Origin: Neophaeotheca triangularis
Taxonomy: Eukaryota
Assembly: GCA_054600435.1 (NCBI GenBank)
Contig: BAAIJX010000049.1
Span: forward strand, 1-64,000
DNA: 64,000 bases
Reading direction: 5' to 3'
This document shows, in pieces, positions 1,409 through 64,000 of the stretch. The position numbers were made by a program, and so were the translations under genes. The number at the start of each line of letters is the position of its first letter. The stretch's first letter is position 1. The notes under the pieces are model-generated. The model saw only the letters and a program-made list of their open reading frames with translations, was not told where the DNA came from and made no database searches.

Positions 1409-2338
1409 ATGTCACAAAAAAGCAGAACCCGCCGCCCCAACACCCCCACCCCTCCCACAACACCAGCCCCTACTTCCACGAAAAAGAACCCCAGCCGCCA
1501 CCCCATCCTAACCCCGACCCCAAGCCGCAGCCCCAGCCCTTCCCACGACCCTCCCCCCGCTACCTTCGCCCCGAAACCCCCACCCACACCCCCGCCCCAG
1601 CCTAACCCCCTTCACCAGTCTCGAAACCTCCGCTCCCCGCCCCAGCACCCCCTCTTCGCCCCCCTGGTGCAAGATTTACTCGCCTCCACGACGCGGTATC
1701 AGGTTTGTCGAGCCCGGGTTCTGTGGTTGCGGGAGTTGGGGGGTGAGACGGGGTCGGTTTGGGGGGGTTTGAGAGCGGAGTTGGCGGGGTTGGAGGATAG
1801 GGTGTTGGAGGGTTTGAGGGAGATGGTGGGGGTTTTTGGGTGGGTTGGGTGGGTTGGAGGGGAGGTTTGGGGTGAGGGGGGATTTGGTGGGGGCTGTGAG
1901 GGGGTGGGTGAGGGGGGATGTCAAGGGGAGTGTGGGGATGGTGATGACGAGGGTTGTGAGGATGGAGGAGTAGTGGGTTGTGCTGATTCTGGGGTGGGTT
2001 TTGGGGAGTTTGTGGGCCTTGATCAGGAAGGGGGGTGTGAGGCGGGTGCGGACTGGGACGATGGGTCGGCAGGGACTTCCTTCAAGTCCTACCGGGGAGA
2101 AAACCCAGCGGTGGGATACGAGTGCGGAGAGTCGAGTCTGGGGCTCCCGGAGCTATGGGAGGTCTCTGGAGGAAGGTACCTGGCCGAATCCGCTGTGAGA
2201 AGGGCGGAGATAGATGAGATGGAGAGAGTAGTCTGCGAGATTTTGGGGAAGTGGTTCCCCCAGCCTTCTGAGCTTCTCGTGTCATCTAATCGCCAGGAGG
2301 ATGGTCCTGAACTAGCACTTTCAAGAGGCATTGGTTGA
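1409..2338 (+). CDS. Hypothetical protein (Pro-rich N-half, Gly/Glu-rich C-half)
   Basis: 309-aa ATG ORF with no recognisable domain. Its composition tracks the local C-rich then G-rich skew, so it may be partly spurious. Confidence 0.35.
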   Translation: MSQKSRTRRPNTPTPPTTPAPTSTKKNPSRHPILTPTPSRSPSPSHDPPPATFAPKPPPTPPPQPNPLHQSRNLRSPPQHPLFAPLVQDLLASTTRYQVCRARVLWLRELGGETGSVWGGLRAELAGLEDRVLEGLREMVGVFGWVGWVGGEVWGEGGFGGGCEGVGEGGCQGECGDGDDEGCEDGGVVGCADSGVGFGEFVGLDQEGGCEAGADWDDGSAGTSFKSYRGENPAVGYECGESSLGLPELWEVSGGRYLAESAVRRAEIDEMERVVCEILGKWFPQPSELLVSSNRQEDGPELALSRGIG

Positions 2339-2710
2339 TGTGGCCATATATCTTCAGGGTCAGGGTTTGGGTTGGAGTGCTGGTTAAAAGCTTTGGTTTC
2401 TTTTGGGCCATACTATTGGATGCGGGAGTTTAAAGGAGTTTTAAGGTAGTGCGATCACTTATATTTGCTTTTCTGCCTACTTAGCTATTCCTTACAAGTG
2501 GCCTGTTCTTGTAGGTCTCTCTTGTATATATTATAGTGCTTGCATCACAAATCCCGTGACCGGGTGCCCAAGCGTGTCGCGGGGTTGCCCATTGTTGACG
2601 CGACCATACCTTTGTACATTCCAAGGTTACACCCAACTGCACTTTTCACCAGACACCCATCGATACACCGCAAATGCTACAAACTACTCTATTATAGTTC
2701 GAGCCCAATC

Positions 2711-3853
2711 ATGCCGACCACCTCAACCCACAAGCCCGCTCCCCTCGCCGCCAAACCCTCCAAAAACATCTTCGACCCATTCAACTCCTCATCCACCGGC
2801 CACCAAAGAGCAGACAACCGCCTAAGCGGCAGCATCTCCTGGCGCGAAAGCCGCAACCGCAAGTTGCAAGAGCAGTTCGCGCACCAACACGATGGCGGAG
2901 GAAAACGCATGTCCGACACCGTGGGAGCGGGGAGTTTAGACTTTGGAACTGACGGGAGGACGGAGAATGGAGGTTGGGAGCGGGGGGCGAGTGGGTTGAG
3001 GAAGGGCGGGCAGAAGAGTATTCTTGAGGGGTTTGGGGTTGAGAAACCTGAAGTGGGGGAGGGGGAGAGGGGGACGAAGAGGCGGAAGGTTGAGCCCACG
3101 GCTGTCGTGAATCCTTTCACGCCGTGTAAGAAGGCGGATGGCTCGGTGAGGGAGACGAGCTGGACGAGCCGGGAGACTGCTCCATCGCGGCACCTGCTCT
3201 CGCCGATCGATATGCTCTACCCTGTCGAAGACTCTGCCATCTCTTCCCCGGCGCCAGCTCCCTCGAACCAGGAAGCAGCTGCCTCGCTCAAACACCCACT
3301 CTCGACTCTCACGGAAGAAGCCTCAGCACCCACCGCACTCCCCGTAAAGCCCAACCGCCAGCTCGAGCTCGAATCCCAAAACCAAAGCCAACCCCCTTAC
3401 CCGCAACTTCAAGCTCCACCACCCAAACCGCCGCAAATCTTCCAAAACCTCAAAATTCACCTCAACGGCAGCACCGCCCCTCTAATCTCAGACCACGCCC
3501 TCAAAACCCTCCTAACCACCCACGGCGCCCAACTCTCCCTCTCGCTCAGCCGTAAAAGCGTCACGCACGTCATCTTAGGCCACGCTAGCAACAACAACAA
3601 CAACAGCAAGAACAAAACCACCAACACCAACAAAGGCAGCGGCGGCGGCCTCGCGTCCTCCAAACTACAAAAGGAGATAAGCGGGAGCATTAGCAGATGC
3701 AGCGGCGTGAAGTTCGTGATAGCCGAGTGGGTTATCGAGAGTGTGAGAGCCGGGAGGAGGTTGGGAGAAGCGAGGTTCGCAGGGGTGGGTATGAAGGGCA
3801 GTGGGCAGAGGGGAGTTGGGGAAATGTTTGCGCGGAAGAGCAAAGGGGGATGA
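2711..3853 (+). CDS. BRCT-domain protein
   Basis: First ATG at 2711. N-terminal FDPFNSSSTGHQRADNRL motif. C-terminal BRCT-like IFQNLKIHLNGSTAPLISDHALKTLLTTHGA...VTHVILG...VKFVIAEWVIESVRAGRRL. Confidence 0.8.
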   Translation: MPTTSTHKPAPLAAKPSKNIFDPFNSSSTGHQRADNRLSGSISWRESRNRKLQEQFAHQHDGGGKRMSDTVGAGSLDFGTDGRTENGGWERGASGLRKGGQKSILEGFGVEKPEVGEGERGTKRRKVEPTAVVNPFTPCKKADGSVRETSWTSRETAPSRHLLSPIDMLYPVEDSAISSPAPAPSNQEAAASLKHPLSTLTEEASAPTALPVKPNRQLELESQNQSQPPYPQLQAPPPKPPQIFQNLKIHLNGSTAPLISDHALKTLLTTHGAQLSLSLSRKSVTHVILGHASNNNNNSKNKTTNTNKGSGGGLASSKLQKEISGSISRCSGVKFVIAEWVIESVRAGRRLGEARFAGVGMKGSGQRGVGEMFARKSKGG

Positions 3854-4330
3854 TGGGGCGAAAGGGTTGGCTTTTTGCTTTTACCCGTGCTGAGGGCGAC
3901 AGAGGGGAGAAAATCTACAAGTCTCCTTCTTCCCCTCATCCTTCTTACAACGCCCATACCGTATCCTGCTTTGCGGTCGAGCTTCGGAGTCCCGTGCTCG
4001 AAAGTAAACAATTCACGCACTTACTGCCAGCAGAGACTGGTCACTACCGCCAGCCTCCTCTTCCTCGCACCGGCGAAGCGTACGAGGCTCGGGAACAACC
4101 GGTTTGGAAAAAGACGACGCCGGATTCTGCTGGGCCCTTGATGGCACCCGCTGGCTCTCCGGCTCTAAGAAGAGGGGGGAGCACGTTTCGCCACTGTGGC
4201 CGGATACGTACACGTTTGGGCGAGGCGAGCGTAATGGAGAGAGGAGTCTTGTTTGTTTTGCTTTGGAGCGGAGGGGTGGTTGAGCTGGAGAGAAGGAGGG
4301 CGGAAAGAGAGAAGAGGCTAGAGGGAAGAT

Positions 4331-4450
4331 TGCCGGAGAACAGAGAGTCGGAGAAAAGAGTGCCGGAGAAAAGAGAGCCGGAGAAAAGAGAGCCGGAGAA
4401 TCGATAGATGGCCGGGGAAAAAGAAGGCCGGAGAACAGATGGCCAGAGAT
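4331..4450. repeat. 15-bp minisatellite (GCCGGAGAAAAGAGA-like, about 8 degenerate copies)
   Basis: Visible tandem units. Translates as (PEKRE)n on + and (FSGSL)n on -. Confidence 0.75.
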
Positions 4451-4928
4451 TAGAGATTGTTCGAGCTAGAGAGGAAGCCCGCCAGGGAAAACAGGCCAGG
4501 GAGAGTGAAGGCCATATCAAGATGGCCAGAAAGAAGAACGAGGACGGGGCAACCGCGAACTTTACCCTATCACTATAGAGATTTCTAGAGATACCCCCAA
4601 CAAATTCTACCTTATTTCTGAAAAGCCATCTCATTAATCAAAATCCAATCGCCTACCTTGGACAAAGACAAAAAGCATGATTCGACAACAAAGAGCTCAC
4701 ATGGAGGAAAACATTTCCGTGTCGGCTACACAATTTCAATTCCAATTTCATATGCATTTTGTGTCTCCCCATCTATATCTGAGAGTTCATCCCATCCCAT
4801 TCAACCCTTTGTCAGCCCAAGACAGGCAGGACAAAAGAGCCTCAAAAAAATTTCATCAACATTCATATCTGCTGTCTCACTGCCACCGCCACTTCCACAC
4901 ACATGTCTCAAGCTCTTGTAACCAATCC

Positions 4929-6852
4929 TTAAGCAGTGTAAGTAGAAGCGGAAACGTTACCGCCGCGACCGGTCCAGTTGACGTGGTGGTCCTTGCCCTC
5001 GGGGTACTTGTCGCTGGCGTGCTCGGGCTTGATACGGAAGGTGTGGGCGCCGAAGTAGTCGCGCTGGGCCTGGAGCAAGTTGGCGGGCAGGTCCTTGGTG
5101 CGGATGCCGTCGTAGAAGGAGAGGGCGGTGCTGAAGGCCGGGGTGGGGATACCCCAGAGAGCGCCCTTGGAGACGACGTCGCGCCAGCCGGGCTGCGCGT
5201 GCTGAATGGCCTTGTTGAAGAAGTCGCTGAAGAGCAGGTTCTCCAAGTCGGGGTTGTCACGGTAGGCTTGGGTAATGTTCTTGAGGAAGACGCTGCGGAT
5301 GATGCAGCCACCGCGCCACATGAGGGCGATCTCGGGCTTTTGAAGCTTCCAGCCGTACTCCTTGGCGGCCTGTATGGAATTGTTAGTCTTCTTCTATCAT
5401 GACTTGTGGTGGGTACAACTTACGCTCTGCATGAGCATGAAACCCTGGGCGTAGGAGATGATCTTGGAGGCGTAGAGGGCCTGCTCGAGGTTCTTGAGGA
5501 ACTCGGTGCGGTCGCCGTTGAACGAAGGAGTAGGGCCACCGAGCTTCTGGCTGGCGCGAGTACGCTCGCCCTTGAGGGAAGACAGACACCTGGCGAAGAC
5601 GGCCTCACCGATGAGGGTCACGGGCTGACCCATGTCGAGGGCGTTGATTGCGGTCCACTTGCCGGTACCCTTTTGACCAGCAGAGTCAAGGATCTTCTCG
5701 ACGAGAGGGGTGTTGTCGTCGTCGTTGTAGTAGAGGATGTCACGGGTGATTTCGATGAGGAAGGAGTCAAGGACGCCCTTGTTCCACTCGGCGAAGACGT
5801 CACCCATCTCCTTGCTGCTCATACCGAGACCACGCTTCATGATGTCGTAGGCCTGGAAAATGTCAGCTACCCGTTCTAAATTTCGCACATTCGAATATGC
5901 TGTGTCGTCTCACCTCGCAAATGAGCTGCATGTCACCGTACTCGATACCGTTGTGAACCATCTTAACGTAGTGGCCCGCACCCTCGTCACCGACCCATTG
6001 GCAGCACGCCTCGCCGTCAGACTTGGCGGAGATGGCCTGGAGGACATCCTTGATGTAAGGCCAGGCCTCCTCGTTACCACCAGGCATGATGGAAGGACCG
6101 TAACGGGCACCCTCCTCACCACCGGAGACACCGGAACCGACGTAGCGGATGCCCTTGGCCTGCAAGTACTTGGTGCGGCGGTTGGTGTCGGGGAAGTGGG
6201 AGTTTCCACCGTCAATGATGATGTCGCCGGGCTCGAGGCCGGACTCGAGGAGGGCCTCGATGAAGTCGTCGACGGGCTTGCCGGCCATGACGAGCAACAT
6301 CATGCGGCGGGGTTTCTTGAGCTTGGCAACAAACTCCTTCATGCTGTGTGCGCCGACAATGCTCTTGCCCTTGGCCTCATTATCGAGGAAGCGGTCGACC
6401 TTGGCAACGGTACGGTTGAAGGCGACAACGTTGAAGCCGTGGTCGGCGGCGTTGAGGATCAGGTTCTGGCCCATGACCGCAAGGCCAATGAGACCAAAGT
6501 CTCCGCTAGAGAGGGAAGCATGTCAGCAGGTGTGTTGGGTGGGTAGGTAGGTAGGTAGGTAGGTAGGAAGCGAGCGAGCAATGGTTGGGAGTGGGGTGAT
6601 TGAGTGATTGAAGAGGATGGATGAGCCAGCACCACAACCGCATTGTGTCGTATCCTCGCTCTTTCGTAGCCGTTCAGCAGAAGCATATGATGAATGTTGC
6701 CGCTGTTCCGCCACGTCGTTGTATGCATGCCCAAGGCCGGGGACAAAATTCTTCCTCTTGTGACATCAAGCCCAGCAGCCCCCACCACCCCTCCTCCATG
6801 GATGGATGTGCTTGAAGGAAAAAGAAGCAACTTACACAGCCTCAGTAGACAT
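4929..6852 (-). CDS. GND1: 6-phosphogluconate dehydrogenase, decarboxylating; exons 6852-6836, 6505-5914, 5852-5424, 5369-4929
   Basis: Spliced start [24 protein letters not shown]. Motifs [46 protein letters not shown] and [11 protein letters not shown]. Three GT-AG introns with branch sites keep the frame. Confidence 0.97.
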
Positions 6853-50465: not shown

Positions 50466-51095
50466 CTACTTCCCACCGCCCTGCTTCTGGCAAACCCAGC
50501 CCACCCACTCCCTCGGCAGCTCCGTCTGCGCAATGTCCGCGAAACCCGGAAATGTCACTGGACCCGCTGGCTCGCCATCGCAGCTAAACTCCCTGCAAAG
50601 AAAAATCAGCAACCAAGCTGCACCCTCTCACCAGCCCCGGCGAACCGCTCGAAACTTACGTGTAAACCAAACACTCGAGCCCATGATCCGGCCCAGCAGA
50701 ACCCACGGCAATCCTCCCACCTTCAGGCACCGTGACTAAACAACACCCGCCCGTTAGCTTCCCACAACCTCCTCACCATCTCGAAGGCAAGTTGGTGGGC
50801 ACTTACCGCACGCCCCCAGCGGCACTTCGTAATTGACGCATCGCCCGCGCCACTGGTCGTAAGGGCACATGTAGAAGCGACCCTTTGCTTCTTCTTCTTG
50901 TTCTTTTTCCCGGGCGGTGGTGTCGTGGACGATGGGTTTGAGGGTCGTTGCCGCGGTAGTTTCGGGGTCGAAAGCTATGCCCGGGATTGGGACGAGTTGT
51001 TTTGGCGGGGCGAATGGGAGGGTGGTGGTCGATGGTGTTTGGAGGGTTTGGAGGGCGGCGGGGAGGGTGGCGGTTAGGGTTGAGAAGAGATGCAT
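50466..51095 (-). CDS. Small Cys-rich, probably secreted protein (163 aa, beta/gamma-crystallin-like pattern); exons 51095-50807, 50735-50660, 50592-50466
   Basis: Two GTAAGT...YAG introns join in frame to give FYMCPYDQWRGRCVNYEVPLGACVTVPEGGRIAVGSAGPDHGLECLVYTEFSCDGEPAGPVTFPGFADIAQTELPREWVGWVC (6 Cys). Confidence 0.75.
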
Positions 51096-51618
51096 TGCGA
51101 GGGTCGGTTAGGGGTTGGAAGTGTTGGTTTGGAGAGGGGTGTTTGTTGTTGATTAGTTAGAGGGGGATGGGATGGGATGGGATGGGATGTGATGGGATGG
51201 GATGGAGAAGTGATGGAGAAGTGATGGGCTCGCTGATGCCTGCGAGATGTGATGACGTTTAAGTCGGAGGCACAGTTGACGATATAATGAGCCTGTCAAA
51301 GGACCGTTTAGTTGTATCGGATGGGTCGTAGATCTGGTCAATGGATCGCATTCCATTTGTTTGCCTCCTTGAATGGACAAAAGACTACAATGATCGAACA
51401 TCCTCCGTAACGGGAAACGTCGTTCTGCGGCTAGCCAAGACTATTCAGGACTTTTGAAAAGTGTACATGAGTGTAGTCCTGTAATGAGATTGTTGTTTGA
51501 CCCAGCATTGAAGACAAAAAGTGAAACCGTTGTTGTAGCATCGTCGAACGCGTATCACCACTACGTTCCCACTATAAAACCCAAAACTAAGCAGACTTCT
51601 AGCAAAACCGTTCCGCAA

Positions 51619-51768
51619 TGTTGTAATGAGCCGTACTGCGCAGCACGTGACAGATACCTAAGGCATTAGCCGGAAGCCGCAACCTGTCTTTACAGGCTTT
51701 GCTGTAAAGCACCTAGTTTAGTCCTTAGTAATCAATTAATTGAGTTTGTGCCGCTATATATTACAATA
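51619..51768 (+). repeat. 5' LTR (150 bp) of the Copia element
   Basis: Terminal inverted repeat TGTTGTAAT...ATTACAA(T)A, followed immediately by the PBS-like GGTTATAAGCC. Confidence 0.75.
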
Positions 51769-54299
51769 GGTTATAAGCCTAGCACATTAATCTATATAAG
51801 CGAGCACGAAACTAGCTAATTACAATTCCTAGGATAATTATCCCTAGTTAAATAAAATAGACATAAACAATAAGGGAGCTAAGGACAATAAAATCCTTAA
51901 GAAGAATACAACCTTTAGTATCTAAGAGGCTATCCTAAAGAGTAAGCTACTTAATAAGGACTATCTTAACTATATATTTCATAACCTTAAATAGCTACTA
52001 AGGGTAGTCTAACTAGCATTATCTATAACGGAAGCTATAGTTAAGTTCTATAAGAAAGATATACTTATATATAGCATTATTATAGAAAGGCTATTAGACG
52101 AATATAGGCCTAACTATAGTATATTATATAAGATAGCTTATAAGCTATTTAAGCATATTAAATCTATCTACTAGCCTAATATTATAATTACCCTCTATAA
52201 GGCTATCTCTAACCTCTATAGTATTAAGCTATAAGGAATAAATACCCTAAAGTATTACTAGGAGTTTATAGTAGCCTATTAGACCTTTAAGAGAGCTATT
52301 AACTAATAGATAGCTCTAAGGAACTAGATAAATATAAGAAGTATTAGTCTCTTAGATAACTATATTAAGATCCTCTTTAAAGGGAGAACTCTAAATATAG
52401 AGTAGCTTAGGACTTAGAGATATAATAACCTCCCTTAAAGTAGGAAATACTTAGAGGATATAATTACTAGCCTTAGGTCTAAGGCCCTACCTCCCCTATC
52501 TTAGTAATAGAGAAGGATATAGGGGTTTATAGGTATAGTAAAAGATGATATCTATACCTAATGTAATTACTACTAATATACTAATGCTAAATGCTTTAAG
52601 TAGTACCTAGAGTAGGTATCTAAATAGTATAAGAAAGGTAAGGATAGTAAGAAGGATAGGTAGGAGAAGAAGAAGGATATAGGGAAGAATAAGAACACTA
52701 AGTCTACTAAGAAGAAGGGGAGAAAAGCTACTATAGCTATTAATAATAGTAATAATAATAATACTAAGTTAATCTTAGCCCTATCTTTAGGAAGTATATT
52801 AAGTATTACTCTATCTCTCTCTATAGTACTATAAGCTATAGTACTAGAAATCACTATTATCTTAGACTCTAGATTATCCTTCTCTTTCTTTAATAAGCTT
52901 AAGCACTTTTAGGATATTAAGCCCCTTAAGAAGCTAATTACCTTTAGCTAGGCTATTAGATAAGTATCTATTACCTACTCTAGAATAGTTAAGCTCTCCC
53001 TTAGATATAATAATAAGATCTTTAGTATTACCCTAAAGAATATCCTATACTCCTTAGGATCCTCTACTAACCTAATTTATATAGATATACTATACTAGAA
53101 GTATAGGATTACTCTAGATAAATATACTAATAAGCTAAGGTTTAATAAAAGCACTATTAGGATAGTAAAGCAAGTTTATAAGGTAGATATTATATAGGAT
53201 ATTAAAATCCTTCTACTACCTTAATAATAAAGCCTACTATTAATAGTAGTAGCTATACTAAGATTACTAGTAGTACTAGTAGTATTAGGGCTAAGGGTAG
53301 ACATAACTAGATAGTACTAAAGATTAGGCTATATTAGTAGTAGCATTCTTAACGCTACTAAACAATATATAACTAGGCTTAAAGTAGTAGATACTATAGC
53401 CCTAAGCTACTATAAGGTCTATAAACTCTTAAAGTCTTAAAAGGTTATCTTAAGAATCCTAAGAGTAAGGGCTAGTTAAGCCTTAGATAAGATATATATT
53501 AATATAGTTAGCCCTATTATACTAACCTCTAGTATTAGTCTAAGGTACATTATCTTCCTAACAGATTCTAAAACTAGGTTTAGGTAGCCTCTCTTTATAA
53601 GAAATAAAAGTAAGGTACTATCGCTTATTAGGAATTTTATAGTAAGAACTATAAATGCCTATAATAAGGTACTAAAGATATAGTTCTCTAATAGTAGCAG
53701 GAAGTTTATTAACTATAATTTAATTACTATAGTATAGTAGATAGGGATAAGATAGGATATCTTAAGCCTAAAGACTCCTAAATAGAATAGCCTTATAGAG
53801 TTATCTAATAAAACTATCCTAGCTAAGGCTAGGGTAATAATAATTAACTCTAGTATTCTTAGAGATCTCTAGCCCCTAGCTATAAACTATATAACCTATA
53901 TTACTAATATAGTCTATAACCTTAAGACTAAGAAGATCCCCCTATAAAACCTTAAAGAGGATTTAGGGGTATCTAAGGACTTAACTATTAACCTCTCTAA
54001 CCTTAGAAGATTTAGTTATAAGGTATTCCTATATAACTAAAATAGGATTACCTTAGAAAAGTTTACCCTAAGAGCTACTATCTACTAGTTTATAGGATTC
54101 TAAGATAACTCTACTACTAATTATCTCTTAATAATACTAACTAGATAGGGCCTATCTAGCATTATTTAGAGCCTATATATAACCTTTAATAAGGATACCT
54201 ACTTTAGGCCTATTTAGGCTCCTATAGTTTAGGGAGAGTAGTTAGCCCTTTATATCCTAGGGCTTTAGGAGAACTCTATTAGCCTATAATAGGAGTAGT

Positions 54300-54590
54300 A
54301 ATAATAATAAGCCTCTCCTAAGGGAGAGTACTATTACTAGTAAGTCTCCCCTAAAGAGTAGGGAGAGTACTATTACTAGTAAGTCTCCCCTAAAGAGTAG
54401 GGAGAGTACTAACCTTCTCCTAAGGGAGATTTCTAGTAAGCCTCTCTTAAGGGAGAGTAATAGTAAGCCTCTCCTATAGAATAGGGAGAGTAAGAAGCCT
54501 CTCCTATAGAATAGGGAGAGTAAGAAGCCTCTTCTCCTATAGAATAGGGAGAGTACTAAGAAGTCTCCCCTATAAACTAGAGAGAGTAAT
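54300..54590 (+). repeat. Tandem 30-39-bp repeats in the Copia IN-RT linker
   Basis: GAGAGTACTATTACTAGTAAGTCTCCCCTAAAGAGTAGG twice, then AGTAAGAAGCCTCTCCTATAGAATAGGGAG about three times. Confidence 0.85.
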
Positions 54591-55303
54591 AGTAGCCCTT
54601 AGTTAACTAAATAGAGGAAGATTAGGGAGACACCTTAATAATACTATTCTTCCCTTAACTAACTACTAGTAAGAGGAAAAGATTACTATCCCTCTAGCCC
54701 TTAATATATATAAGGGTAGGTAGGCCTACTATAAAACTATAAAATTATAGGTAGTTATATATAGGAGCTATAACCTAGGCTACTAATAATCCTAAGGACT
54801 ATTACGATATATTTAGTAGAAAGGATATAAGCTAGTAGAAGGCTATAATAATTAAGGAGATTAAAAGCCTTAAATCTACTAGTACAATTACTTAGATTAA
54901 GTAATTAGAGCTACTACCTAGTAGAAGAGCACTTATAAGGAAGTAGGTATTTAAGCTAAAGCTTCTCCTAGATAGCTCTATTAATAAGTATAAGGCTAGA
55001 TAGATAGTAAGGGGATTCTTATAGAAACAAGTGTTATAACCGTAGCGCTAGTAGGACATTAGTAGCCTAAGCTATAGAGTAGCTCGGTAGTACTAAGCGT
55101 ACATACTACGAAAGTATATAAGATAGCTAATAGTAAAGTCTCCTATCTACTATCGAATAGTTTCTATATTAAAGGACTATCACTATTATTACTATTATTA
55201 TGTTCCGCCCTCGCTATACTATAATCCTAACCGAGTTATAGTCTCGGTCTTATAATTCTATTCGATCTTAGAACCTTTTCAGGTTAAGATTCGCTTAGAC
55301 ATT

Positions 55304-56461
55304 ATAGTACTATCGCGCTCGCTACGCCCTTAGGTCGACAATACTAACCTAGCGGACTCCCCTAACACTATTACTAGAGTTAACACCCTATAAGAATAAG
55401 AAGAGGCAGCGACGGACTAATACACGGTTCTTACTACCGCTATTACGGAACTCCGATAACAATTAGTAGAGCGTATAGCGCCTATCTAGCGAGCTACTAA
55501 TAGAGCGATAGTCCCCTATAACGAGTCTAAAAGAGGACATATTGAACTAGAGGACCTAGCGGACATTACCCCTACCCTAGTAACATATAAGTAGATAGTA
55601 GACGAAGATCTACCTACTAGCGTAACGATAAAGGAGCGAAAGTCTTATATCGATATTGAGAAAGCTTTTCGCTTAGCCGAACTAATAGTTTATAGGAGTT
55701 ACCCTAACCTCCTAAAAGTATAGACGTTTATCTAGTAATATAAGCGTATGTTTAAAACGTACCCTTATGTTTACTTTTACTAGTACGAGTATATCTAGTA
55801 CGCTACAGGCCGTCTATATAGCCGTATCGGCTAGAACTAGGAGAGTAAAGAATTATGACTTAAACGCGAAGAGATAAAATAGCCTATGTTTAAAGAATAG
55901 CTACTAGATTAGATCCTCGACCCTAAAAACTACGCTATAAACATAGTATTCCGAGGCTTTAGACATATTTAGGGAGCGACCTAATCTATTCATAACTACC
56001 TCTCGTATATCGAAGACTCCCTCTACGAGGCCGACGTCGCTCTACTACTAGAGTACACGCTCCTAACCCTCGTTAAGATAGGTCTATAGGAAAATCTTAA
56101 GGCTAAGCTAAATGCCTAGCTAATAGTGCTAGACAACCGGTATAACCTCGTCGCGCTCTATATATACCTCGACGATTCGAGCTGTAGTAGCTAGGACGCT
56201 AGAGGCGAGATAGCAGATAAGCTATATAAGACTAACTTAAAAGGTTCTAGCTATAAGAAAAGAGAACAAAACTAGAGCATAAGCGATAACAACTCTAAAC
56301 CGCGCTACTAGCGTACTAATAGGACACTAGCGACTAGTATAAACCGTATAGGTACGACTAATAGTAGCGAACAAAACAATAAAGCCCTCGAAGAAAACCT
56401 CTGTTTTAAGTATAGTAATAAAGGCTACTAGCAAGAAAATTGCCGAAAGGGAAAAGCTTAG
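55304..56461 (+). pseudogene. Gypsy gag relic with CCHC zinc knuckle
   Basis: Largely one frame with RIP stops. LCFK(C)(G)NKG(H)xQENC at 56399-56443. The start ATA at 55304 is inferred to be a RIPed ATG. Confidence 0.8.
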
Positions 56462-59400
56462 CCCTAGGTCATTTAATTATTAGCCTTAAAGGCTTAGGGC
56501 AGTAAGTACGCAGTATATTAATAGAGCGTCTATAGGCGGTCGTAAAGATATACGATCGTACTCGCGACGGGCTACGCTTCGAGACCTATAGGCTTATTAA
56601 CATAGGAGCGTATTATAACGTTATCTTAGAAGACATCGCGGTCTAGTATAACCTACCGATAAAGGGTAACCGGATTTGTAGGCTACGAGCCTTCGGCGAT
56701 GTCGAAGCCCTAATAGTAGGCCGATATTAACTCTATACTAAAGTCGCTAATTTAGACAGTATAGTCTAAACTATCCTATAGATATTCGAAGTAGTAAACT
56801 AGAAGGATTACGAAATAATTCTTAGAATACCTTAGATCCAATCTGCGAAAGCATAGCTTAATTTCGCGTCGCTACTAGTGTAATAGCGCTATAGCGGTAT
56901 ATACAATAAAGAAGAAGTCGAAATCATCGAGGCCGAAGAACTAGCCCGAGATATTAACGGTAGAGTATCTATCCTTACTATTAGCGTAGAAGACCTATAT
57001 AGGACCCCGGTAGAGCTACGGGTACCTAAGTAGTTAGTAGAGTATGCTAAGGTGTTTAAATTAGAGAAGGCGAAAGAGTTACCTCTATATACGCTTTATA
57101 ACTACTATGTTAAACTAGTCGAGGGAAAAAACCCTCCTAGTAGACCGATCTATCTATGTTCCGAGCTAGAGCTCGAGGAAATGTAGTTATAGATTAATAA
57201 CCTACTCGTAACAGACCGTATTAAGCCTAGTACTAGCCCTACTAGTATACCGTTACTATTCGTTAAGAAGAAAAACGGCAAACTTTATATATATGTCGAT
57301 TACCGAGGCTTAAACGAAATTACTATTAAGAACAAGTATCCTTTACTACTTATTAGTAAACTCTTAGATAGAGTCTACAGATTAACATAGTTTTCGAAAA
57401 TCGATTTAGTTAAGGTATACTACTGTTTATGTATCGCCTAGGGCGACGAGTAGAAGATAGCGTTCTACTATTAGTATAGCTATTTCTAATGTAAGGTTAT
57501 ACCTTTTAGACTCGCTAATGTACTAGCGTTATTTCAGGCCTTTATTAATAAGGTGCTTATAGAGCTAGTTAACTACTACTATATAGTATATATAGATAAC
57601 GTTCTTATCTATTCCCATACTAAAGTAGAACACCGCGAACACGTTCGAGCGGTCTACCGTTAGCTCGCTAACGCTAAGCTATATACTAGTCTCGAGAAAT
57701 GCGAGTTTATAGTCTAAGAGATTAGATTCCTTAGTTTTGTTATTAACTCTACTAGAGTAGCGATAGAGCCCCTATAGGTAGCTATAGTATAAGATTAGCT
57801 AATACTAAAGTCCTTAAAAGAACTCTAAGTGTTCCTAGGATTCGCAAATTTCTATCGTCGCTTTATCGAGGGATATATAAAGATTACCGCTCCCCTTACG
57901 GACCGCCTATAGTATAGCGGCAGTAAATTGTAGCTACTAGGTAAAGATGCCTAAACATCCTTCGAAAGGTTAAAGTATAGCTTCATTTTAGTACTAGTGC
58001 TATAGCACTTTAACGCTACGCTAGAGACCCGCCTTAACACCGATACATTAGGATATATATTAGGAGGCATACTCGCGTAGAAGTACTTAGACACGCTATA
58101 GCATCTAGTCGTATACTACTCTAAGAAGCTTAAAGGGCTAGAGTTACGATATCTAGTATATAATTAGGAACTACTCGCTATCGTCGAGACGACACGCTAA
58201 TAGCGGCACTATATATTGTTAGCTAAGAGTAAAGTTTAGGTACTTATAGACTATAACAATCTAAAGTACTTCCTATTAATAAAGAAATTGTTAGGCCGCT
58301 AAGCGCGCGCTACGGAAGAGTTATCGTAATACGACATCGAGATTACATACTATAAAGGTAAATTAAACCCTAGAGTAGATAGGCTATCGCGCTATCCTAA
58401 TATAGAGGCTAATAGAGAATTAAGTAGGGCGGAAATGCTACCTATATTAACTAGGCTTTTCGCTCCCCTAGTAGGCTACTATAAGGCCGCCAAAGTTCTA
58501 GCGAGTAGCTACACGATAGCTGCCGAAGATAGAGTAGAGATCCTATCTATATCGCTAGGGTACATAATGCTAGTAAACTACTAGGCGTTAGCTGCCTCGC
58601 TAGTAGTCTACACGATAGCTACTAGAGATACTAGTCCTCTAAACAATAAGCTTTAGAGTAATAATACTATATACACTAAGCGAACGCTCTAAGGGGGAGG
58701 TAAACTAAACCTAACTAGCTCCGTCGCTATAGTAGCGCTAGCCTATTATAACCCTATAGGTAAGTAGCTAGGTATTCTTACTATTACTAAGCTAGACATT
58801 AGAGAACCTAACGTAGCGGTAGACCGAATTAACCTTAGAGCGGATATGTTATATATATAGTAGGGAGACCCCTCTACTAAACGTATTCATAAAGAGATCG
58901 ACGAGGGATAGTACTATAGAGACGCTAACGGCGCTACGCCTATGTAGTCGGTTAGGTTTATAGGACTTCTTAAGATTAATAAAAAGGTATATATACCGCT
59001 AGTAGAAAGCCTACGGGCCGCCGTGCTAAGCTACTACTACGAGGACCTATTAGTAGGACACCTAAGAGTAGGGAAGACTAAAGCCGTTTTCTATAAGGAG
59101 TTTTAGTAGCCTAAGTAGACTAAGGATGTTAAAGAGTATGTCCTTAGGTATAATACCTACTAAAGACACAAGTCGCGCTACTACTAGCCCTACGGCGCAT
59201 TATAATCGCTAAGGGTTCTAGGTACTAATAAGATCTTTAAGCATTAGTCTATAGACATAGTGGTTAAGTTGCCTATCGTAGAGACATATAAGGGTAAAAC
59301 AGTCGATTCTGTATTAGTTATTATTAACCGCTTCTTAAAGTTCGTAAGGTATATCCCTATTAGTAAAACAATAGGGGCCCGCTAACTAGCTAATATTTTT

Positions 59401-60357
59401 GAGCACGAAATTCTTACTAAGTTCGGTAAGCTAAAATCGATTGTAACTAATAGAGGCAGTATATTTACCTCCGCGTTTTAGATAGAGCTCCTTTAGTATT
59501 AGAAAACCGAGCGTAAGTTATCGACAGCATACTACCCTTAGTCTAACGGGTAGATAGAGAGGTAAAACTAGATAATAGAATAATATCTACGATGTTTTAT
59601 TAACTTTACACAAATAGATTAGCCTTATTACCTCATATAGGCTAAATTCGCCTATAATAATAGCATAAGCACATCGACTAAAGTGTCGCCGTTCTTTACC
59701 GTCTATAGGGCGGAGCCCTAACGGCCTAGTAGCGTTACGGATAACGCCGTCGGAGAGGGAGGTAGCAAACTGACAATCCCTAACCTCTAAGAAAGAACTA
59801 AAAACTAGAAAGCAATTCGCGAAGTCGTCGAGGAGAACATTCAGCACGCTATTAGCAAGTAGGTAGAATACTATAACCGAAAACACGATCCTATAGTATT
59901 TAGTGTCGACGATAAGGTTCTTATTTCCGCGAAAAACCTAAAAACGTTAAGACTAACTAAAAAGTACTCCTCGCGGTATATAGGGCCCTTCCGAATCATA
60001 GTAAGGGTTAGAAAACAAGTATACCGATTAGCCCTACCTCTATACCTTAGAAAGATCTATAACGTCTTCTACATCTCCCTCCTCGAACTATACTACTAAC
60101 GCGCCGACTTCATACTACTAGTAGAGCGAGAAGTCGATAGAGGGGTGCTATAATAGGTTATCGACGAAATAACGGTATCTAGTCTCGACAATAACGGTAA
60201 TAAGATGTACTATATTCTTTAGAGAGATTAGCTAATAGAAGAGGGTACCTAGGAGAAAGAGAAGCATCTAAACAACGCGAAAGAAGCGATCGTAGACTTC
60301 GAGTAATACTAGTAGACCTATAGCGGCATGAAAAAGAAGCGTAGAAAGAAAACATAA
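56449..60357 (+). pseudogene. Gypsy pol relic (PR-RT-RNaseH-IN-chromodomain)
   Basis: De-RIPed motifs: LIDTGA about 56593; [17 protein letters not shown] about 57295; YxDDVLIYS about 57590; TDASG about 58040; HHCC integrase; TDRG; STAYHPQSDGQTER; GPFRI; IHNVFHISLLE; chromodomain YxILWRDWPxEEGTWEKEKHLDNAKEAI about 60150-60300. Confidence 0.93.
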
Positions 60358-60520
60358 AGCCTAAAGAAAAAGAATGTTGAAAATACACAACTAGGAAAAA
60401 AGAAGAAAACTATAGGAAAAGGACGTAGTACATAAGCTTCTTAATTAATAGCTACTACGGACGGGCTAGCGATAGGACAACGGCGCTCGTAAAGAGTACG
60501 TAAATGATTAAACATAACGA

Positions 60521-62250
60521 TTAAGCCCTAGTGTCTACTACCTTCGTAACCTTAGCAATATTAGCTTATAGCTAATCTTTAGTACTAATAGACTCCTCTA
60601 TATTCTCCCCTACTAACGGAGCGGCGTCGTTCCTACTACTTATCTAAAATAAACCCTTAACCTCCGTTATATACCTAGGAGCTACTACTAGTACCTTGGG
60701 AACCTCGTCCTCCTAATCCGACTCTAGTAAAGAAGAGGAATCCTCGTTAGAAGACACCTCTAGTAGCGTACCGGCGTCGTCCCTACTACTCTTCTGAACC
60801 GGAGCCTTAGATGTTAATATTGTCGTAGTAACTCCCGTACTACATTTATAGGCGTACTAGTTTTACGGTATTTGCTTTATCATTACCCCCTTCACATACC
60901 TATACCTCCCCCTATACTAGTACTTATATCTTAGACACCTACCTACCTAGACAGACACACATGGAATAAATTGCGACTAATTGAATTAGCCTCTATGTAC
61001 TATAACTAACCTAACCGATTTCTAACCCCGACGCATTATTCGTAACCGTTACGAACAATCCCTAATCCTCGACTATACCTGATTCCTAATCCCGTTACAT
61101 TATTCGTAACCGTTATAAACAATACCTCCCTAAGTAAAACTAGTCTCCCGGCTTCTCGAGTGTTCTCGCCACTCGACAATATTAGCGCCTTAAGGGCCTC
61201 TACCGGTATACCGACGGTCTTATCGTAAGGCGGCGACATACTAACACTAGGAGTCGCGCGTAGCGGCGAAGAAGAAGATATGGCGCGATAGCGGCTAGAC
61301 ATCTCGTTAATAAGCATAGACATTTCTATGTAGTAGATAGCGATAAGCCTCTCGATAGTATTAGTAACGATTATAGCGAAGTCGTAGGTTTGATCCGTGA
61401 TTAGGCGTGCTATGTCGTATAGAGTCAAGATCTTATCGTTATTAGGACCGGAACGACGAAGGCCCCCTATTAGGATAATAGCGCGGTTATTCTTATAGAA
61501 GTACTAGGAGACCTTAGCGTTAACTTCTAAGACCTTAAGGTATATTAGCGAATCGGTAGCGCTACTACTAGCGCGATTAGCACGATAGAGTATAGCGGTA
61601 TGGTTTATCTAGACACGGTAGCCACGCTAGCTTACGAGGTTAGGAACGATCTAAAAAGACATTAGTAAAAACTCGTAACGACGACGGAGTAATAGTAGGC
61701 TTACCTCGATATAGGACTACTTTATATCCTAATAGGTATTATATACCGATCTAGTCGTAGAAGACACTATCTAACATAGTAGGACGAAGTCGACGGACCT
61801 AGCGAGAACGTTACTTAAGAGCTCCTTAATATAGCGCGAATAACGAGAGCGATTAACATTAGGAGGATTAAGCTCTATACCCTTATCGATGTCGGCGAAG
61901 TGATAGAACGCCGGCATATCCTTGTCGGAACTACTCTCCTCCCTATTATTACCTATAGCACGCTTACATTTCGAGCCTATACCCTTAGTAGCCGTAGTAC
62001 GCTTCGTACTAACTCCCTCTAACTTTAAACCCTTCTTAGTAGACTTCGATTCGTTAACTAGATCCTTTAACTCCTCTTCTATAAAGCTACTAGTATCGAT
62101 CTAATAGTGGCCCTTAGTCATAAAGACTCCCTTAGCGACGATCGCCCCGTCTATAGTAAAGGTACCCTTACTATTAATAGCTATAGCGCTAACGCTATAG
62201 TCGACTAGCGCCTATTACGGTAGGAGGGTCTACGCTAGCTTAGGTAGGCT
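60521..62250 (-). pseudogene. RIP-mutated spliced gene antisense to the Gypsy pol, with two predicted Cys6 clusters
   Basis: The minus-strand frame is maintained across introns 61704-61651 (GTAAGC...ACTAAT...TAG), 60899-60840 (GTATGT...TAG) and a tentative 61026-60977. The Cys pattern is recovered by reverting TAT/TAC to TGT/TGC. Confidence 0.6.
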
Positions 62251-62419
62251 TAGGTAGGCACTACCTCCTTAGTATTGTTTACTTATACTTTAGCCTTATA
62301 GATAGTTACATAATGCTACTTTGCTTACACTATACATTAAGACCTATACCCTAGATCTTAACATCTAGTAGCTAAGAAGAGAAAAGATCATTAGGTAAAC
62401 CTATCCCTAAAAAGTCTTA

Positions 62420-62850
62420 CTTATAGTCCCTAGTCTACCCGACCGGTAATAGTTAGTATAAAGGAACCTAGTCTGCCTAATCTACTATAGTCTACTCGAC
62501 CTACGACGGTCTACCTAGCCCTTCACTATCTACTTAACCCTCTAGGGTCTACTCGCCTAGTAGTAGTCTACTCGACTCGTCACGAGTCTACTTAACTAGC
62601 TATAAGTCTACCTGACTAGCTATAAGTCTACTTGACTAGCTATAAGTCTACTCGACTAAGGATAGTCTGCCCTACTCATTTTAGGCCGATAGACTAATTA
62701 GGCTCCGGCCTACTCTCTACGGTCTAACTACCGAAGTCTACCTAACTCGCGCTAGTCCGAATCCGAAGTCTACCTAACTTATCCTAGTCTAGTTAACTTA
62801 CTAATGTCGACGTAAACCGCGCTACTCTACTCGAAGTCTATTAACTCTAG
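62420..62850. repeat. Degenerate tandem array built on AGTCTAC, including a 20-bp unit AGTCTACYTRACTAGCTATA
   Basis: Near-perfect 20-bp copies at about 62586-62660, with many diverged AGTCTAC cores around them. Confidence 0.8.
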
Positions 62851-62929
62851 ATGATTTGCCGGAAGACCTTTCCCTTATCCGCTAAATTTAATAAGAGCCG
62901 GTAGAGCCTATCGTAGTCTCGTTTAATTA

Positions 62930-63987
62930 CTATAGTCTCGCCTACCTATAACTAAGAGAATAAAGGGGAATTTACTATAAGCGTCGTCACACGCGTCTAG
63001 CGAAGACTAGTACTTGTCCTATTAGCTCGCTTAAAACCGATAGCTACTTAGTAAGACCCGATTACATAGCCCTTATAATACTACCTTATAATCCGTAACC
63101 CTACCTTTTCTCTACGAGAATTAGTCTAGTCGGGAACAATTAGGCTTTAAGCGCCTACCCTAGAGCCGTTACTAGATCTTATAGAGTTCTTAATCGATAT
63201 AGCCTATTACCTTTTAAACTTCTATAGTAACGAGCGGAGATCTAAGGCTATCTATAGTAGGAACCTACGGATATAGTCTATAGCTAACAGAATTGTCGCT
63301 AGATACCCTCGCCCTAATAAAGACTATAGAGAGTTCGGTTTCCCTCCGTAGTAGTATATAGACAAGACGTTAATTAACCCTAAAGTGAAAGACCTACTTA
63401 GCGCTTATAAGGGAATTAAGTACTACCCCCTACTTAGAATCGACGAACCTAGCCCGGCGATTATAGGAGTACTAGTAGCTACCTACGCCCTACGACGCCT
63501 ACTATCTAAATCTACGGTAAGGATACCTTCTAAAAGCTAGGCAACTGTCCTAGTAACCCCTAAGCAAACCCCTCTCCTAGAAAGCGAAAGCCTACTTAGT
63601 TCTACTATTAGCGACGACATCGTCTAGAACCAAAAGCCAGTTTTCGCTAGTTTTAAGTCTATAAATCACTAGACCCCTTTACCTAAAACCGAAACCACTC
63701 CCGTAACTAAGAACTTATCGCGATCCCTATCGCCTATCTCTAGAGAGTTCTATAAGGAGCTATATACATTTATCGAACCCTCTAGGCCTACTATTACCCT
63801 CTCTAAACATAACCCTAAGCCGGGTTATATTACTACTCTCCTACGTAGCATTCTACCTCTATAAGAGCCTTTTACTATTATGGCATTAATAATAGAACCT
63901 AATAACAACTAGGAGTACGACGACTATTCCCCCGAGCCCGGGCCTAGTAATAGATAAGGGAAGTAGCCTACTAACTACGCCCCGTAA
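62930..63987 (+). pseudogene. RIP-mutated ORF relic of unknown product
   Basis: One + frame gives long protein-like, Pro/Ser/Thr-rich stretches with sparse TAG/TAA stops. 5' end uncertain. Confidence 0.45.
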
Positions 63988-64000
63988 ATGCTTAACCTTA

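Follow-up and report, generated by a model that had tools for sequence, protein, structure and literature searches.

A multicopy antisense open reading frame downstream of pol, probably part of a RIP-inactivated chromovirus, in Neophaeotheca triangularis

Antisense open reading frames (ORFs) located between pol and the 3′ long terminal repeat (LTR), termed aORF-3R, occur in the plant retrotransposons Grande, RIRE2, Retand, and PvRetro13, and Boty of Botrytis and Sclerotinia likewise has one (PMC7264820 and PMC8365987). The plant genes of this kind are Grande gene23, that of RIRE2, Retand ORF4, and PvRetro13 ORF2. As reviewed in PMC7264820, aORF-3R proteins have no known function and no described database relatives, the Grande gene has a promoter of its own and encodes a nuclear protein, and HTLV is known to have antisense LTR promoters. 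The additional antisense gene of Boty, brtn, is mentioned in PMC8365987, PMC4227169, and PMC5987419. In the literature searched, no fungal antisense ORF was found beyond brtn. This gene of Boty-like Ty3/Gypsy retrotransposons from Botrytis cinerea and Sclerotinia was reportedly described by Zhao et al. in 2011 (Virology 417:248). The plant examples come from lineages other than chromoviruses, and their 3′ internal regions are very long. Among retroviruses, HBZ of HTLV-1 is an antisense, spliced gene, which is driven from the 3′ LTR and encodes a protein with a bZIP domain.

Here we analyzed a 64,000-nucleotide stretch of N. triangularis DNA (contig BAAIJX010000049.1, positions 1 to 64,000), referred to as the window. 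An initial annotation had proposed that the 3′ region of a chromovirus in this window encodes, on the minus strand, the element's own spliced DNA-binding or regulatory accessory protein. Of this proposal, a multicopy antisense ORF 3′ of pol was retained; the zinc clusters and two of the three introns were not. Probably, the ORF is the antisense additional ORF of a chromovirus, and positions 55,032 to 62,29x represent one RIP-inactivated, 3′-truncated Ty3/Gypsy copy. The following features were distinguished:

55,032 to 55,254, plus strand: predicted 5′ LTR of 223 bp, placed by contig joints, a depth peak, and its position ∼130 nt upstream of the gag frame
55,390 to 56,700 (approximate limits), plus strand: gag frame, from translation, in a frame different from that of pol
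57,262 to 60,357, plus strand: pol, with reverse transcriptase (RT), RNase H, an integrase zinc domain, SH3_Tf2-1, and a chromodomain-like end
60,472 to 60,476, no strand: LTR insertion site in another family copy, with two joints and a probable 5-bp target duplication
60,713 to 60,814, minus strand: last part of the antisense ORF, which encodes a tail rich in Ser and acidic residues and stops at TAG 60,715 to 60,713
60,815 to 61,170, no strand: dispersed repeat of ∼0.36 kb inserted in the ORF, skipped by three contigs and by P0004, a protein from another copy
61,171 to 62,241, minus strand: first part of the antisense ORF, with eight in-frame stops and with firm homology to other copies starting at 62,211
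61,651 to 61,704, minus strand: candidate intron of 54 nt, with GTAAGC, a CTAAT branch-like site, 9 nt, and a TAG acceptor
62,267 to 62,297, no strand: repeat end, where depth drops from 1,692 to 133 to 149, with single-copy sequence beyond in sequencing run X1

The six frames of positions 51,001 to 64,000 were read with X in place of stop codons and then compared with Pfam. All matches fell into a single plus-strand frame, and the other five frames had none. This frame contained RVT_1 (∼57,262 to 57,741; E value, 2e-16), RT_RNaseH together with RT_RNaseH_2 (∼57,943 to 58,332; 9.5e-16 for RT_RNaseH), Integrase_H2C2 (∼59,005 to 59,178; 3.4e-05, slightly under its curated cut-off), and SH3_Tf2-1 (∼59,911 to 60,093; 1.4e-12). 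RT, RNase H, and integrase followed one another in the order of chromoviruses; the C-terminal chromodomain was recognized by eye only, as a stretch through which the frame continues past SH3_Tf2-1 before it decays. PF00385 was present in 2 of 13 more distant relatives. The last 393 codons of pol contained 27 stops, the final one at 60,355 to 60,357, in agreement with the end of pol assigned originally (60357). The gag frame gave no Pfam match. At 56,402 to 56,443, it carries what we take, from the familiar pattern, to be its CCHC knuckle, which now reads C-x2-Y-x4-Y-x4-C; in the window copy, RIP has turned one Cys and one His of the knuckle into Tyr. Scans of the region for tRNAs and Rfam families found none.

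The G+C content was 50 to 61% up to ∼51.5 kb and 29 to 44% from there to the window end. In this AT-rich block, TpA/ApT was 1.9 to 2.5 and (CpA+TpG)/(ApC+GpT) was 0.19 to 0.26, whereas the corresponding values over the first 51 kb were 0.75 and 1.16. Both indices were alike in the Gypsy body (2.01 and 0.26) and in the block containing the ORF (2.0 and 0.26), confirming the proposed RIP damage in both.

Of the words sampled from the stretch, a fraction of 0.71 was present in sequencing run X1, its probable source; none of the runs listed for the stretch was an RNA run. Repeat borders and abundance were estimated by placing the X1 contigs on positions 51,501 to 64,000 at ≥80% likeness (single-copy depth, ∼133). 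Runs X2 and X3 bear the same organism label; 0 and 1 of their contigs, respectively, could be placed on these 12.5 kb, and the family is apparently missing from them. Joints within X1 contigs set the LTR start at 55,028 to 55,039 and its end at 55,254. The LTR starts with TG and ends with TA where CA is expected, after RIP. The bin with the highest depth (54,837 to 55,253) reached 6,368. Positions 55,032 to 55,254 would be the LTR of the Gypsy family, to which the window holds no second LTR. Neither a repeat finder, nor blastn, nor transition-tolerant alignment detected an LTR pair in the window: blastn of 60,358 to 64,000 against the whole window (word size 7) yielded only a 47-nt internal duplication, and transition-tolerant alignment of the DNA behind pol with the 5′ LTR region reached z values of ≤2.4. 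The lack of a 3′ LTR after pol, noted at the outset, was therefore borne out, and the truncated window copy does not show two LTRs with a target duplication. The block containing the ORF was also considered as an LTR or part of one and rejected, as it resembles no part of the 5′ LTR region.

On the minus strand, the cleanest frame was that of phase 62,298, with 0 stops per 100 codons in 61,201 to 61,500 and in 61,801 to 62,100. Its read-through translation (P0001; 397 codons) contained 14 X, of which 8 fell into the part homologous to other copies, and the start codon of those copies was not recognizable in phase. Word-indexed searches covered near and shorter protein lengths. At near lengths, 5,652 candidates from 5.8 billion proteins included one match (P0002), and at shorter lengths, 537 candidates included two (P0003 and P0004). 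All three proteins came from Logan contigs and represent other copies: P0002 (283 amino acids [aa]) was identical to the window ORF at 205 of 273 residues (75% over 273 aa), P0003 (156 aa) at 119 of 146 (82% over 146 aa), and P0004 (112 aa) at 72 to 76%. An HMMER profile search of 1.84 billion representatives had a single match, which was P0003, a copy of the same family. Neither the word-indexed searches nor this profile search, for which the query was RIP-mutated, revealed ORF relatives outside the family itself. Metagenome scans with the queries A2 and P0004 gave 219 and 598 pattern matches, none of which was confirmed by tblastn.

Pieced together from the copies, the ancestral frame comprises ∼388 codons, from a Met located 10 codons before window position 62,211 to the TAG at 60,715 to 60,713, which is common to the window and the copy encoding P0004. 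An open ancestral frame of this length would be far beyond chance. The minus-strand frame of the initial annotation is hence long and real, but its length of ∼500 codons has to be reduced to ∼388, up to the stop common to two copies. Beyond 60,713, the frame is also low in stops down to 60,521, and the original ORF was possibly longer. All copies seen were RIP-mutated, and none was intact. With the ORF on the minus strand (62,241 to 60,713) and pol on the plus strand (up to 60,357), a multicopy antisense ORF just 3′ of pol is real.

Depth sums in run X1 were 5,592 to 6,368 over 54,837 to 55,670, 2,280 to 4,137 over pol, 1,692 to 4,559 over 60,258 to 62,342, which contains the ORF, and 133 to 149 over 62,343 to 64,000, with two-fold variation between bins. 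A contig of 8,112 nt with a depth of 133 begins at 62,267. This depth pattern indicated that the DNA behind pol is a repeat about as abundant as pol, which ends at ∼62,267 to 62,297. Conservation was 72 to 82% identity for the ORF pieces and 85% for a pol piece from another copy (P0006; 71 of 84 residues identical to window 59,893 to 60,144). The Logan contigs given for P0003, P0004, and P0006 all measure 4,151 nt. From this equal length, the only link between them, it seems that pol and the ORF share one contig in a second copy; the ORF thus seemingly adjoins pol in at least one more copy.

Two joints were found at 60,472. One leads from 55,254 to 60,472, and the other leads from 60,472 through 11 letters to 55,039, each in one contig at single-copy depth (129.7 and 132.9). 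Compared with window 60,473 to 60,476 plus 55,032 to 55,038, the 11 letters showed 6 identities, 5 transitions, and 0 transversions, and the 5 nt at 60,472 to 60,476 were present on either side of the inserted LTR. We take the joints to be the two ends of an LTR, either a solo LTR or one of a nested element, that probably inserted into another copy; the sequence from pol to the ORF would then have been continuous in that copy already before the insertion. The possibility that 60,472 is the regular 3′ LTR border of the family was rejected, since each joint was represented by one contig at single-copy depth; such a border would also need a base-exact deletion of the LTR in the window. The similar depth, the 4,151-nt contigs, and the LTR insertion at 60,472 to 60,476 tie the ORF to the Gypsy unit. 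A 3′ LTR behind the ORF is absent from the window and was seen in no copy, so its placement inside the element is inferred. Among the joints listed for run X1, none leads from ∼62,27x back to the LTR start, which is weak evidence against this placement. The block containing the ORF was also considered as the continuation of a Copia-like fragment located left of the LTR. This was rejected: the plus strand had no coding signal, the three plus frames of 60,473 to 62,299 had no Pfam match, and the depths differed.

In the window, the ORF is interrupted. P0004 joins the residues encoded at 61,188 to 61,171 straight to those encoded at 60,814 to 60,797, and three X1 contigs skip 366 to 403 nt between 60,810 to 60,814 and 61,181 to 61,214. 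Because these contigs and P0004 skip 60,815 to 61,170, we conclude that a separate dispersed repeat landed in the window ORF. Unrelated sequence stands before 60,821 in eight X1 contigs and behind 61,178 in five. The insertion includes a 64-nt tandem duplication (61,012 to 61,127), and two further contigs skip 125 to 128 nt, equivalent to two 64-nt units. At the insertion borders, a RIP-diverged direct repeat of some 10 to 14 nt was visible by eye. The window copy is dead: it combines eight in-frame stops, an unrecognizable start, this 0.36-kb foreign insertion, and the lack of a 3′ LTR.

Several parts of the gene model drawn up initially fall into the insertion. The second of two proposed cysteine motifs (motif 2; 61,045 to 60,900), which had been likened to DUF3716 and overlaps the 64-nt duplication, and the introns 60,899 to 60,840 and 61,026 to 60,977 are located within ∼60,815 to 61,170, which is lacking in other copies, and do not belong to the gene. 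For the third proposed intron (61,704 to 61,651), the good signals listed above hold. On the other hand, such patterns also turn up by chance: GTAAGY/CTAAY/YAG at 45 to 100 nt was found four times when both strands of the RIPped block, 25 kb in all, were scanned. Two of the four lie in pol, and another, in the ORF, has a length that would disrupt the frame. Since 54 nt is a multiple of three and P0002 reads through the candidate in frame and free of stops, the ORF stays in phase with or without splicing; the intron, though possible, is not required for the frame.

We regard it as extremely unlikely that the locus is a spliced antisense gene with three introns and two CxxC...C...CxxC...C zinc clusters erased by RIP. 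For motif 2 and two of the introns, this reading is already largely refuted by the insertion. The candidate intron of 54 nt would fit it, as would the gag knuckle, in which RIP did make Tyr from Cys and His, and the depletion of CpA/TpG (0.26) could have left few TGY codons in the window. Motif 1 reads as the initial annotation had written it, and position 61,776 is Cys in two of three copies and Tyr in the third (P0002). The other five of its six positions, supposed to be former cysteines, were however Tyr in all copies seen: 61,842 and 61,833 in three of three, and 61,743, 61,734, and 61,713 in two of two. The least mutated copy is that of the P0003 contig, whose pol piece has His (three of three) and Arg (one of one) at places that are Tyr or a stop in the window; even so, P0003 has Tyr at the first two positions of motif 1. 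Across the ORF, Tyr alternates with another residue in 10 columns (Arg, 7; His, 2; Cys, 1), and 14 others show nothing but Tyr in the copies seen. Zn2Cys6 clusters follow the pattern C-x2-C-x6-C-x5-12-C-x2-C-x6-8-C, with which the motif 1 spacing (x2, x18, x10, x2, x6) does not agree, above all in x18. Pfam gave no match to Zn_clus or DUF3716 with four versions of the protein (P0001 at E values up to 1; P0002 to P0004 at up to 10). The other copies thus do not restore the cysteines, as had been expected of a consensus, and a zinc-cluster reading of motif 1 is unsupported, with the last three positions resting on two mutated copies. In RIPped DNA, Tyr-rich "ghost cysteine" motifs come cheaply, with Tyr arising here more often from Arg than from Cys, and so do intron-like signals, as seen inside pol. 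The ORF protein might, at least in part, be a captured host gene fragment instead, and residues ∼221 to 277 resemble ribosomal protein eS21. In a PDB profile search with three copies, eS21 chains were the best matches (57 aligned residues, 14.4 bits), with an E value of 0.16 that is not significant, and the many eS21 rows represent one family. Pfam's own models found nothing at E values up to 10. More generally, Pfam had no match to any of the four versions of the ORF protein or to the minus-strand frames across the AT-rich block; the ESM Atlas returned no usable match for whole P0002 and, for residues 205 to 283, nothing above chance level (best row, 0.85; no Pfam family shared among the rows). 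Moreover, eS21 was not among the results of the profile search of 1.84 billion proteins, and no similarity extends beyond the 57 residues by eye. Such a capture is thus very unlikely. An AlphaFold2 model of P0002 from a three-row alignment was unusable (mean pLDDT, 32.6).

A more serious alternative, though one we still consider rather unlikely, is that the block 60,473 to 62,29x is not retrotransposon DNA, but another repeat or a former gene beside a Gypsy copy that lost its 3′ LTR, such that either the composite or two separate families multiplied. Besides the missing 3′ LTR behind the ORF, the X1 contigs are in line with this alternative, as they show the AT-rich block to be a mosaic of truncated pieces with differing depths. 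Purine runs typical of an LTR border occur at 60,366 to 60,428, directly after pol, whereas no clear polypurine tract is found next to 62,267, after the ORF; and the two-fold variation between bins makes equality of copy number approximate only. Yet a composite with one LTR cannot retrotranspose, while both parts are present at ∼13 to 34 times the single-copy depth. Pol and the ORF seem to adjoin in a second copy as well, and the flanks of the LTR inserted at 60,472 to 60,476 in another copy are continuous in the window. Finally, the ORF nearly fills the block, with only ∼26 to 56 nt before its start, which leaves no room for ends of the block's own. We therefore favor the ORF as an additional gene of the chromovirus.

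As an additional ORF of a chromovirus, it compares most closely with brtn. In both cases, a single additional ORF that has no known domain lies antisense behind pol of a fungal chromodomain Gypsy element; in Boty, this ORF precedes the 3′ LTR. In contrast to brtn, all copies seen of the ORF described here are RIP-mutated, and no copy with a 3′ LTR behind it was seen. No sequence similarity to brtn was found, in a comparison for which the query was RIP-mutated and the BRTN content of the HMMER library is unconfirmed. With the plant aORF-3R genes, the ORF shares the antisense position 3′ of pol and the lack of clear database relatives, and it may likewise be present across family copies. It differs from them in its fungal host, in the size of the extra region, which measures only ∼1.8 kb including the insertion, and in the lack of homology. 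Like the nuclear product of Grande, its protein may be nuclear: it is ∼390 aa long and has, by eye, several Lys/Arg runs resembling nuclear localization signals (NLS) in the first third and a Ser/Asp/Glu-rich end. As for HBZ, the ORF begins right where the 3′ LTR would adjoin, which makes an antisense LTR promoter the natural model; the bZIP domain of HBZ has no counterpart here, and the intron is a candidate.

The arrangement of one opposite-strand ORF of ∼390 codons after gag-pol, where the 3′ LTR should come, would correspond to the aORF-3R layout. With an ORF start ∼26 to 56 nt inside the repeat end, an intact element would have a promoter in or at the edge of its 3′ LTR that fires in the antisense direction. 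The basic NLS-like runs and the Ser/Asp/Glu-rich tail would suit a nuclear accessory protein which modulates the element's own cycle. More tentatively, the family may have been active until RIP, with a lineage-specific antisense gene unrelated to brtn that started at the 3′ LTR border, used an antisense LTR promoter, and kept a spliceosomal intron of 54 nt, because antisense introns survive reverse transcription. In that case, fungi would have gained such a gene independently a second time.

The layout at this locus matches a known kind of antisense ORF, and the sequence matches nothing. If the ORF is truly internal to the element, fungal Gypsy elements would include a second lineage that carries an antisense accessory gene, which would hint at the repeated emergence of such genes in chromoviruses. 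The short and simple extra region might then serve as a handy fungal model, provided that an intact copy exists.

Tyrosine codons of the ORF, the minus-strand frame just 3' of pol in the RIP-mutated Ty3/Gypsy chromovirus copy, stood where other copies encode arginine at window positions 62,106, 61,905, 61,386, 61,332, and 61,290. P0002, a 283-aa protein fragment from another copy of the ORF family, likewise carried Tyr versus Arg in other copies, at residues corresponding to window positions 61,686 and 61,617. Since replacement of Arg by Tyr (CGY to TAY) requires both CpG bases to change, CpG and CpA sites have therefore both been hit in the ORF family. The "ghost" Tyr residues of the ORF are thus mostly former Arg. 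The gag CCHC knuckle at 56,402-56,443, which at present reads C-x2-Y-x4-Y-x4-C, is a clean in-window case of Cys and His turned into Tyr by RIP. Residues 221-277 of P0002 (window ~61,580-61,410, minus strand) weakly resembled ribosomal protein eS21 (E 0.16, 14.4 bits), a likeness that gained no backing from Pfam, Atlas, or a large profile search.

Repeat features in this part of the window:

54,314-54,602: imperfect direct-repeat array in the AT-rich block, units of 49 to 62 nt, 65 to 84% alike
60,815-61,170: dispersed repeat of ~0.36 kb, inside the ORF
62,482-62,658: 20-nt tandem array

The dispersed repeat contains a 64-nt tandem duplication, and its other contexts in X1, the sequencing run that is the probable source of the window, appeared as loose ends at its borders (8 + 5 contigs). 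By eye, it is bordered by a RIP-diverged direct repeat of 10 to 14 nt; such borders would suit a SINE-like or LINE-fragment insertion. tRNA and Rfam scans of the interval returned no match.

The right flank (62,268-64,000) was single copy in X1, yet had the strongest RIP indices in the block (TpA/ApT, 2.49; [CpA+TpG]/[ApC+GpT], 0.19). Its plus-strand frame from ~63.3 kb to the window end held just 3 stops per 100 codons, and searches of the flank against Pfam and PDB found no relative. This flank may represent an old, diverged element that replaced the Gypsy 3' end or split it off. Directly left of the inferred 5' LTR, one plus-strand frame at 54,780-55,031 looks by eye, from its motif, like the beginning of a Ty1/Copia reverse transcriptase; Pfam gave no match to it, and the neighboring bin (54,420-54,836) had a depth of ~4x single copy. 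Farther left, the interval 51,900-54,000 is another degraded repeat: it had the lowest G+C of the window (29 to 30%) and a depth of 4 to 14x single copy, and its stops were sparse (4 to 6 per 100 codons) in one plus-strand and one minus-strand frame, neither of which matched Pfam.

At 80% likeness, the 12.5 kb from 51,501 to 64,000 was matched by 0 contigs from X2 and 1 from X3, two further samples with an identical organism label. Because of these counts, the transposable element families of this block may be strain specific, or far more diverged in X2 and X3.
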